Source: Escherichia coli
Lineage (GTDB): Bacteria > Pseudomonadota > Gammaproteobacteria > Enterobacterales > Enterobacteriaceae
Direction: 5' to 3' (one strand)
DNA length: 64,000 bases
Assembly: GCF_017348835.2 (NCBI RefSeq)
Contig: NZ_CP071375.1
Made by a program: the position numbers. Positions 43,901-46,900 of this stretch are shown here, piece by piece; the first letter of the stretch is position 1; the number at the start of each line of letters is the position of its first letter.

Positions 43901-46900
43901 TCGTTACCGTAATCGCCGAACTCCCCCAGCTTCGTGTTTCCGGCTTTCCTGTGATGCATCAGATTCACTCTGCCGTCAGTGGTCTGAGTGAAGTACGACA
44001 TCAGGAACGGATTACCGGTACCCGTCATCGCCACACCATCAGGAACGGGAGCATCCGTATACAGATAAATCCCCAGCCCGAACTGATTGTTGGTCAGTGC
44101 GCCTGACAGGCGGAACTTACAGGTCAGTCTGCCGCCCTGTGTCAGCAGGGTAATTGCGTCATCCACCGGATGCGTCAGGGACCAGGTTTTATTGCTCTGC
44201 TTGGTGATCTTAAATACACCATCTGACAACTGAATTCCGCCATCCTTAATGCTCCAGCCCTGCGCAGCAGCCTCTCCGGCTGCCGGCAGCAGGGAGATTG
44301 TGCGAACGGACGTATCTGCAGACGGACCCGATGGCGTGTTGCCGCCGGGCGAGGGTTTGATTTCCGGTGCCTTACCACTGATGAAGGCTGAGGTGCGCCC
44401 GGCTGCGTTCAGAATAGCGGTTGCCAGACGATCCGGAATAATGCTCCTGCGCGCCCATGAACTGAAATGTGTCGGGCGGTTTGATGATACCTGGTTTCCA
44501 TTCGTTCTCGATGCCGCACCGTAATATCCTGATGCCGGAATATCCGGATCTTCTGCCGGCGCGTTAGTGGCGGTATTGACGCCGTTACCGTCTGTCATGA
44601 AGGGCACAAAATAAACGCCCTCACTCTCCCTGTTTTTATACCCGCCGTACACGGTGTCGTATTGGGTAGCGTATGTATTTTTCCAGTAATACGTCGTGTC
44701 ACCACAAATCCACGGCACATCTGCAGCGCTGCCACCATGGCACTGCGCGTTAAACACGGAGAGGTCAGCACGAAACTGTGTCAGCATGGCTGTAAACAGC
44801 GCAGGTTGCTGTGCGTGGGTGGCGGCGCTCATGTCAAACTCACCCTGCATCCAGCAGACGGCCAGCAGAACGTTTTTGGGATTTTTCTGCAATGCCGCTT
44901 TTGTGCGGGAAATCAGATCCTGATATAACGGCTTGCCCACCCCCCAGCGTGCCGAATCCTGACTGGCCCCCGTGGACTCGCTGAATGTCCCCTCCGCGCC
45001 CTGGGTAAATGCCGAACCACCACGACAGCATGGTACCAGCAGGATCCCCGCGTTATTCGGGATATACGGGAGCAGTTTTTTGGCAATATGTAAACCCTGG
45101 CCGACACAGCCGTACTGCCCTTTGCTCAGGTCAGCCCTCGGATGATTCAGCGTACTCATATCCTGCACATCATGCAGACAGTGGTCAGCCGGAATAATAT
45201 CGTTATATCTGCAGGCAGCCCCGCCCGGCGTCACTGTACTGCGGCGCGCCAGCTGTTTAATGCGCGGATCCGGAGCATCGTATGAATCCGGCAGCGGAAG
45301 CCCTTCACCGTAAGCCATGGCATTGGACTGCCCGGCCAGTACGATGACGTAGTACCAATCCGGCTCAGATGAAGGGCCGACCTGTGGCTCTCCTTCAATA
45401 GCCACCGCCTGCATCAGTGTGTACGGCGTAATGGCAACCGGTCCGCCATATGGCTGCCAGCCCTCTTTCAGTTTGTGTGTCAGCTTTTCCGCAAGGTCTG
45501 ACGGCGACGCCGCCCTGACAACATCATAATGTTTAATCGACATCGAATTTCTCCCGTGTAGAGGAACAGAGTTAAAAAGCCGGAAGCGGAATCAAATCAC
45601 AGGATGACCATCTGCCAGTGGCTGGTCGTAAAAAAAAGGCCGCGCCATGCGCAGCCGAAAATAAAGGGATAACGATGATAGTTTGAGAAAAACAGAAATA
45701 ACACTTTTGTGGCAAAGCATGGTGCCGGGTGCCTCCCGGTGAATTCAGTATCAGCACCTGAATCCGCGATTACCCCATATTCCTTCTTGCTGATTGCCCC
45801 ACCGCACAGGGGGATTCACCATGCAGAAGTGTTTTTAATAAACAGCAAACAAAAAAATCAAGCATTATGCAGGCTGTTTCTTTTTATCACCGGCCACAGC
45901 AATACCATAATGCCGCAGACCAGCACCCCATCCGCCAGCACCGACATGATTCTGCTGGTGAAATCCACCATCACCACCAGAAACAGCAGGAGTGCAGCCA
46001 CAGTCAGGCGCAGTTTTACCGTCACAGGTAATTCTCCAGACGAAGACCCAGAACACCGGCAATCTCTTCCAGCACCTTGCGCTCTTCCGGCTCAATTTCG
46101 CCGTCTGCCTCCGCAATGGCCACCGCCACATCCAGCACATCTTCCGCTTCACGCGTATCGTGTTTCACATCCTCGATCTCACGTAACGCCGCACGACGAC
46201 CAGTTTTAAAGTTCGTATCCAGCTGACCGATAATGGTTGCGCTAATCGCATTAATTTCTGACGTAAACGCGTACAGCGCAGGCTGATTACGCAGTACCTG
46301 TTCGATCTTCGCTTTCTAGGAAGCCTCACATTCACCATCTGCACAGGCCACCAGGTATGCGGCGTTAATCACCACCTGTGCCAGATCGCGTTTTTCAAAC
46401 TTTTTAATTTCCGTTGCCGCTCTGCGGGCTTTTTTTACCAAAAATACCAAACATCGTGACGTTCCTTTGGGTGGGTGAGCCAACGCCCGGGAGCGATCTG
46501 CCCACAGAGAAAGTCACACTGACCACTCCATAAGCTCCCCCCGAAAGGCTCTGTGGTTGGTATGCGCCGGGCGTGGTGCGGATACAAAAAAGGTCCGCAA
46601 AAGCGAGCGAGGGAAAATAAGTGTGGTGCGTTGTACTGGGTTCGAACCAGTGACCGATTGCTTAGAAGGCAATTGCTCTGTCCGGCTGAGCTAAAAACGC
46701 AGAATACCGATAATGGACCGCCATCGGAGACTCGAACCCCGCGAAACCAGCTTCGAAGGCTGGCGTTCTATCCCGATGAGCTAATGGCGGTATGTGATGG
46801 TGGCCCTTGCTGGATTTGAACCAGCGGCCTGGCGATTATGAGTCGCTCGCTCTCACCACTGAGCTAAAGGGCCGGGCGCAGGATAATAACGTTACGAAAT

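Follow-up and report, generated by a model that had tools for sequence, protein, structure and literature searches.

A tciA pseudogene and an intact tciB in the stx-type cargo slot of a lambdoid Escherichia coli prophage

What does the stx position of a Stx-phage-like prophage hold when no Shiga toxin (Stx) genes are present? The question is raised by positions 45858–46454 of a 64,000-nucleotide stretch of Escherichia coli DNA (contig NZ_CP071375.1, assembly GCF_017348835.2; hereafter the window, meaning the whole stretch), where the initial annotation, made from the sequence alone, had placed a damaged TerB-like gene and a small membrane open reading frame (ORF) between three phage tRNA genes and an esterase gene. 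The coordinates and features of this region were all reproduced. Very probably, the locus is an accessory ('moron') module known from temperate phages, tciA-tciB, with tciA in a pseudogene state, and it occupies the cargo slot in the late operon of a lambdoid prophage. The gene pair is already known: tciA and tciB were named in phage P1, and the locus in the window is annotated in RefSeq, as a 'TerB family protein, internal stop' pseudogene and a 'DUF3927 family protein'.

tciA lies on the minus strand (46022..46454) and comprises 143 codons once repaired. Three-frame translation of the minus strand from the ancestral ATG at 46454 gives MFGIFGKK, then a run of seven A, then MFGIFGKKSPQSGNGN and a stop at 46404. 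The TerB frame reads KKARRAATEIKKFEKRDLAQVVINAAYLVACADGECEAS, a TAG (46318–46316), KAKIEQ...ADGEIEPEERKVLEEIAGVLGLRLENYL and the terminal TGA (46024–46022). Comparison of this translation with intact alleles locates the first lesion, a +1 insertion, in the 7-A run at 46430..46436 (seven T on the plus strand). It falls at codon 9 and puts the ancestral ATG out of frame with TerB, so that the ATG product has 16 residues. Since intact relatives, which start MFGIFGKKARRAA, and the DNA of phage JLK-2012 (GGTAAAAAAGCC) read six A, the seventh A is a true +1 insertion. The second lesion, located by translation and family alignment, is a TAG nonsense codon at 46316..46318 in place of Glu46. Intact alleles encode this residue with GAG, and across 23 aligned family members its column is one of 23 that do not vary. 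A second possible start, the TTG at 46450, is in frame and bypasses the frameshift, and the product from this fallback start is cut to 44 residues by the TAG, before five of the six predicted helices. This TTG overlaps the ATG, which has the better spacing from AGGA, and is a poor substitute for it. The RefSeq coding sequence (CDS), called by the Prokaryotic Genome Annotation Pipeline at 46450–46022, begins at the TTG; a frameshift call is thereby avoided and only the internal stop is flagged. The window allele also carries A27V, in a column that is at least 90% conserved, together with Y37C and S61Y. tciA is a pseudogene here with two inactivating lesions, and full-length TciA cannot be made from this allele.

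Two further observations concern broken alleles of this kind. A 48-codon ORF beginning with GTG (46022–46168, minus strand) covers the C-terminal third of tciA and matches PHROG 3920 (E = 8.2e-36), a family that appears to consist of fragment ORFs called in broken tciA alleles and thus to be an annotation artefact. In a single database protein (P0004), the window haplotype (A27V, S61Y and the 7-A start) is combined with TGG (Trp) at the TAG site; this allele represents either a pseudo-reversion or an intermediate state.

The lesions are shared by many genomes. The 1071 bp at 45550–46620, which include both of them, were found with 100% identity in 21 complete genomes, and the haplotype is present in 505 records at 99% identity or more; overall, 7,712 places were matched in 5,426 complete genomes. 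A 63-mer centred on the TAG occurs exactly in 520 complete E. coli records, and its GAG version in 40. Since the exact TAG 63-mer recurs in 520 records, the broken allele is inherited and does not reflect a sequencing error. The frameshift in a 7-T run and the in-frame TAG, both proposed in the initial annotation, are real when judged against the six A and the GAG of intact alleles and the 21 identical genomes. The intact 143-residue protein forms clusters of 108–848 member sequences each. The ratio of nonsynonymous to synonymous substitution rates (dN/dS) between tciA alleles is 0.04–0.08, with 0.08 between the window and JLK-2012. This low ratio indicates that tciA is strongly constrained when intact and that the window copy was inactivated recently relative to the divergence of the alleles.

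The stitched TciA matches the Pfam family TerB (PF05099) over residues 31–138 of the repaired protein with 39.9 bits, above the cut-off of 24.4 (E = 5.9e-10), which bears out the TerB similarity first suggested for this gene, and intact relatives carry a precomputed PF05099 assignment. With an intact relative (P0001) as the query, PHROG 632 'tellurite resistance' is matched along the whole length (1–143 of 143; E = 4.2e-69). A phmmer comparison of TciA with the solved TerB of Klebsiella pneumoniae (PDB 2JXU) gave E = 3.1e-8. The AlphaFold2 model of TciA has six helices (predicted local distance difference test score 83.1, predicted template modelling score 0.78), and its best Foldseek match is the TerB-like structure 2H5N (probability 1.00, template modelling score 0.53–0.62), with an E value of only 0.015. 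Two conserved acidic ADGE motifs are present. A scan of NCBIfam returned only sub-threshold matches to DjlA and YmfL and no equivalog.

tciB (45858..46025, minus strand) is an intact gene of 55 codons, recognized by Pfam, PHROG and RefSeq (WP_000216649.1). Its product scores 60.4 bits against DUF3927 (PF13064; cut-off 25) and matches PHROG 1470 'TciB-like' with E = 1.8e-29. The GTG start (46025–46023) overlaps the TGA of tciA as GTGA (46025–46022), a GGAG Shine-Dalgarno sequence lies 8 nt 5' of the GTG, and the hydropathy profile has two hydrophobic segments at approximately residues 8–20 and 31–44. The hydrophobic ORF with a GTG overlapping the upstream stop, as it had been described, is therefore a DUF3927 gene. 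The same intact protein, WP_000216649.1, is encoded without change in three independent genomes with a broken tciA. A lambdoid Q-modified polymerase would not be subject to polarity from the premature stop. tciB could still be translated in the window, where at most TciB and the small RNA (sRNA) encoded next to it would be able to act.

The minus-strand order at the locus is Q, three tRNA genes, the tciA pseudogene, tciB, an STnc100-type sRNA gene and a nanS-p-type esterase gene. When the region of the Stx2 phage 933W from Q to terminase was compared with the window by blastn, the cassette was found to sit between 933W-homologous flanks, in agreement with the proposed stx position. On the left, 933W 3083–3420, which contains pT, ileZ-argN-argO and the 'terminator upstream of stx', aligns with window 46911–46575 at 90.6% identity. 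On the right, two blocks downstream of stx2B align with 45842–45796 (87.2%) and 45746–45717 (96.7%), and the 933W esterase gene aligns from 45556 onward (82.9%, then 70.7%). Between the flanks lie 732 bp in the window (46574–45843) and, in 933W, the 1369 bp that contain stx2AB. The tRNA genes and the terminator spacer bound the slot on the left, and the STnc100/EcOnc27 sRNA bounds it on the right. A tblastn search with Stx2A and Stx2B of 933W found no stx in the 64-kb window (best E = 0.78), as the initial annotation had stated; Stx1 was not queried separately. With about 55% identity to Stx2, Stx1 should have been caught by the Stx2 search. The alignments thus show stx2AB and tciAB as alternative cassettes with the same two flanks, exchangeable by recombination within these flanks. 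The suggestion that the present cargo 'replaces the toxin genes' is right about the slot but not about the implied direction, since the data show none and are those of alternative cassettes. Documented here at base resolution, the stx slot is a cassette site with conserved flanks. This is relevant to the gain and loss of stx when co-resident lambdoid prophages recombine, and to the question why relatives lacking stx have a 'Stx-phage-like' appearance. The finding has little practical value; in the window, tciA is dead, and the feature is ordinary and already annotated.

The sRNA at the right boundary was matched by the STnc100 family of Rfam (RF02076) at 45681..45853 on the minus strand, starting 5 nt past the tciB stop, with 100.8 bits against a gathering score of 47 (E = 8.7e-21). 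STnc100 also lies 3' of tciB in JLK-2012 (107.1 bits), and 933W retains the core of the sRNA, GCATGGTGAATCCCCC...CACCGGGAGGCACCCGGCACCATGC, 3' of stx2B. An STnc100 element at that place, the EcOnc27 region of Stx2 phages, has been described previously (PMC12370729, PMC12711010). In the window alignment, the 3' hairpin of RF02076 (approximately model positions 174–197) is deleted, and another strong terminator is located about 25 nt further on. This intrinsic terminator (45630..45656, minus strand), detected by a terminator scan as GGCTGCGCATGGCGCGGCC followed by eight T, is kept in both the minimum free energy and the centroid fold and is conserved in JLK-2012 and in phage 2B8. The sRNA probably ends at this terminator, and so would the tciAB transcript without Q. 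Apart from the deleted model hairpin, the sRNA and the terminator behind it are intact in the window. The z-score of the RNA fold in the sRNA region is only −1.27, so that thermodynamics alone does not single the sRNA out; the call is made because of the covariance-model score and the conservation. The initial annotation did not mention this STnc100/EcOnc27-type sRNA 3' of tciB, the names tciA and tciB, or the RefSeq annotation.

Where else does the pair occur? Among 50,697 phage records searched at the DNA level, it was found in four groups: JLK-2012, annotated as tciA/tciB; the prophage PPyecE_EH1910, annotated as 'TciA/TerB-like'; phage Evi; and, more distantly, P1/P7/D6. None of the 39 phage records with tciA or tciB DNA is a Stx phage by its record name, a count judged on names only and not gene by gene. 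The comparison with related prophages supplied intact alleles, for example that of JLK-2012. A Pantoea prophage has the order Q, tciA, DUF3927, holin and endolysin, and in Salmonella prophages a TerB gene is also followed by a DUF3927 gene; in Pantoea, Salmonella and P1 alike, the TerB and DUF3927 genes overlap or abut at the start and stop. In the virulent Erwinia jumbo phage Parshik (1803–2414), a terB whose product is 64% identical to the TciA of the window is followed by a gene for a two-helix hydrophobic protein of 60 residues, which shares a WPVIKK motif with TciB, has no Pfam DUF3927 match and is probably a divergent TciB. The module ranges over P1-like phage-plasmids, lambdoid prophages of Escherichia, Salmonella and Pantoea, and virulent Erwinia jumbo phages. 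TerB is also listed as a conserved neighbour in the same prophage region in a 2026 preprint on Pas sRNAs (10.64898/2026.05.13.724894).

For the function of the intact module we can offer a mechanism only tentatively. TciA would be a soluble six-helix protein of the TerB fold, as its predicted structure suggests, and TciB a two-transmembrane hairpin that may hold TciA at the inner membrane, with translational coupling through the GTGA overlap keeping the two proteins in a fixed ratio. By analogy with 933W, a transcript that starts at pR' and depends on Q antitermination would cover the pair and the lysis genes late in infection. It might then modify a property of the envelope or inner membrane of the infected or lysogenic cell, and the candidate effects are protection from colicins, from superinfecting phage, or from membrane or oxidative stress. 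The P1 name 'tci' derives from phenotypes of ter operons, namely colicin, phage and tellurite. The pair would be dispensable for lytic growth; a CRISPR interference screen of P1 rated each of tciA, tciB and tciC as non-essential (NE; PMC10695390).

We thus regard it as possible, though far from assured, that TciA and TciB form a functional, late-expressed membrane module for superinfection or colicin exclusion, membrane integrity or lysis timing, and that the broken-tciA haplotype persists via TciB, the sRNA or both. Several points weigh against this proposal. The literature on TciA, TciB and DUF3927 only repeats the homology-based label from P1. A search of PADLOC-DB 2.0 gave no credible defence match, TciA matching only PDC-S48 (E = 0.0036, 14.4 bits) and TciB nothing. 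Late expression, which the initial annotation took over from Stx2 phage biology as 'highly expressed late', is argued by analogy with 933W, and the promoters come from a consensus scan only. With a DicA/DicC-type immunity region and, between its esterase and holin genes, an IS3-family element, the prophage may never fire its late operon. In phages 2B8 and 434, tciB stands without tciA at the same position 5' of the esterase gene, so that TciA and TciB do not have to work exclusively together.

This last point leads to another possible explanation, to which we give a similarly cautious weight: TciB and the adjoining STnc100-type sRNA would be the selected unit. TciB, a small inner-membrane protein expressed just before the lysis cassette, would then need no partner, and tciA would be dispensable ballast in this lineage. 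The intact and identical tciB in three independent genomes with broken tciA would fit this explanation, as would its own ribosome-binding site and start (GGAG-N8-GTG), the two phages that have tciB without tciA, and the very high frequency of the broken-tciA haplotype. However, with 505 records at 99% identity or more, this haplotype varies too little for selection on tciB to be gauged from it, and the intact state of tciB could simply reflect the recent origin of the tciA lesions (dN/dS of 0.08 against JLK-2012). The GTGA overlap moreover suggests that translation of tciB normally needs ribosomes that finish tciA.

The product name suggests a true determinant of tellurite resistance. The TerB membership in Pfam and the similarity to TerB of K. 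pneumoniae (2JXU) would be consistent with one, but we consider this very unlikely. The gene is broken in the window, and no terZ, terA, terC, terD, terE or terF is present among the 69 features annotated in 50 kb of a 99.8%-identical record, that of E. coli PE164. Resistance from ter operons needs several ter genes, as Whelan et al. (1995, cited in PMC6799933) reportedly found. The authors of the P1 and D6 studies described the operon as incomplete and untested. 'Tellurite resistance' is therefore a domain label only.

Could tciA still be functional in the window, through the TTG start or slippage on the A run combined with read-through of the TAG, or as two fragments, the 44-residue product and that of the 48-codon ORF? 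The TTG at 46450 is in frame, 7-A alleles that lack the TAG carry an annotation as intact genes (P0007, P0013), and the 48-residue GTG ORF (46168–46022) is called often enough to have its own PHROG 3920. Yet none of the three phage tRNAs, with anticodons CAT, TCG and TCT, is a suppressor, and the TAG replaces an invariant glutamate. Intact alleles have six A and GAG, so no recoding signal is conserved, and the TTG overlaps and competes with the better-spaced ATG. Residual function of this kind is hardly plausible. It is extremely improbable that the gene is intact and that both lesions arose in sequencing or assembly, even though homopolymer runs are error-prone and 13 gap openings over 45.6 kb separate the window from its closest record, PE164: the 21 identical genomes come from different laboratories and hosts, the TAG, exact in 520 records, is a substitution and not a homopolymer error, and protein clusters starting MVFLVKK, from 7-A alleles, exist independently. 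Across the region, no uninterrupted ORF is longer than one of 166 codons on the opposite strand (45709–46209, plus strand), but the chance that it is the real gene is negligible, as it has no Pfam match and is annotated in none of the three RefSeq records inspected, while the minus-strand frames have two family matches and strong purifying selection.

The features flanking the module, all on the minus strand, are those of a lambdoid late operon. The gene for the late antiterminator Q (47084..47779) was taken from the ORF list, its longest ORF starting at GTG 47779 and the RefSeq CDS covering 47084–47773; 'bacteriophage antitermination protein Q' is the annotation in records that are locally 99.8–100% identical to the window. 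Overlapping the 3' end of Q is a candidate pR'-like promoter (47072..47100; TTGCAA-17-TATATT) from the consensus scan, at a position analogous to pR' annotated in 933W. Between Q and the tRNA genes, a scan detected a candidate tR'-like element (46997..47020), a palindromic G+C hairpin (AAACCCGCCCACAAGCGGGTTTTTTTG on the minus strand) followed by a T run. The interval between Q and the tRNA genes is where lambdoid phages produce a short pR'-tR' transcript of the 6S/StxS type. An isrK-like Rfam match at 46995–47067 (minus strand) covers this hairpin but is weak, with 22.7 bits below the gathering score of 50.

The 90.6% block begins with a candidate pT-like tRNA promoter from the consensus scan (46883..46911), which aligns with pT as annotated in 933W. 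It is followed by an ileZ-type tRNA gene with a CAT anticodon (46798..46873), called Met by ARAGORN and Ile by RefSeq and matched by the Rfam tRNA model, and by the genes for tRNA Arg-TCG (46714..46790) and tRNA Arg-TCT (46624..46700), found by ARAGORN and the Rfam tRNA model and annotated in RefSeq. The spacer at 46575..46623 is homologous, by blastn and the 933W feature table, to the 933W segment with the 'possible rho-independent terminator upstream of the stx genes', which would fall at approximately 46585–46608. Beyond the sRNA, the next late gene (43693..45543) encodes a nanS-p/YjhS-type SASA carbohydrate esterase of 616 residues, found in the ORF list and named 'SASA family carbohydrate esterase' in RefSeq; it has 70.7% DNA identity to the 933W esterase gene.

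The prophage adjoins a tRNA-Ser gene and has an early region of the DicA/DicC/DicB/DicF type; it is a Qin-type early region joined to a Stx-phage-like late region. Positions 18391–64000 of the window match E. coli PE164 (NZ_CP114128.1) at 99.8% with 13 gap openings. General prophage decay, suggested by the frameshift annotation of PE164, was rejected, because the same four genes, those for the portal (34025–35617), major capsid (31060–32088), tape-measure (25143–27722) and integrase (60851–61876) proteins, are open in the window; their pseudogene calls look like assembly errors in the PE164 record. The IS3-family element (42331–43544, plus strand), within the late operon between the esterase and holin genes, has a transposase with a programmed frameshift and contains an ALIL pseudoknot at 42612–42728. 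A hokD/sok type I toxin-antitoxin locus lies at 50019–50343 (sok, RF01794, 114 bits), and the DicF sRNA and dicB, with the dicA/dicC immunity region, at 57423–57837. Past the tail genes, window 14000–18400 diverges from PE164, which has tccP2 and an espV fragment there. Outside the prophage, the Hfq-binding sRNA rseX was matched at 1125–1214 (plus strand; 97.7 bits).

How does the locus compare with known systems? TerB of ter operons (2JXU of K. pneumoniae, and the IncHI2 plasmid R478) belongs to the same Pfam domain, is all-helical and carries acidic DG(E/D) motifs. In contrast to it, TciA of the window is a distant relative (37 bits) without ter partners, is paired with a DUF3927 membrane peptide and stands in a phage context. 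The N-terminal TerB-like domain of DjlA shows a weak match at the C-terminal ADGE repeat of TciA (PRK09430, 27.5 bits; cut-off 162) and is alike in concept, as a TerB-like domain kept at the inner membrane. Unlike DjlA, TciA has no J domain, and the proposed membrane anchor would be a separate polypeptide.

In P1, as in P7 and D6, the module has the same order and abutting or overlapping start and stop codons, with 51% identity of TciA over 144 residues and 49% identity of TciB. The P1 genes are arranged as tRNA-Asn, tRNA-Thr, two small genes, tciA, tciB, tciC and tRNA-Ile, so that tciAB adjoins phage tRNA genes there as well. tciC was not found in the window by tblastn with P1 TciC (best E = 1.1). 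The P1 module lies upstream of ban in a phage-plasmid, whereas that of the window lies 3' of Q in a lambdoid late operon and its tciA is a pseudogene. In both P1 (2257–4127) and JLK-2012 (4943–5937), tciAB adjoins a tRNA-Asn/tRNA-Thr pair, which suggests that the tRNA genes and tciAB travel jointly between phage-plasmids and lambdoid phages.

Among lambdoid elements, 933W has the same gene order of Q, tRNA genes (Ile, Arg, Arg), cargo, esterase and lysis genes, and Q-dependent late transcription is presumably common to its stx2AB cassette and tciAB, but the cargo is unrelated and the type of Q differs. PPyecE_EH1910 has intact tciA and tciB directly 5' of yjhS, with a methylase gene and a toxin-antitoxin pair instead of the tRNA genes. 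The architecture of JLK-2012 (NC_049942) is identical to that of the window, with Q, three tRNA genes, tciA, tciB, STnc100, the esterase gene yjhS and then S, R and Rz. It differs in its tRNA set (Asn, Thr, Gly) and in TciB, which is 69% identical with a divergent C-terminus, while its TciA is 96.5% identical to that of the window and is encoded by an intact gene with six A and GAG.

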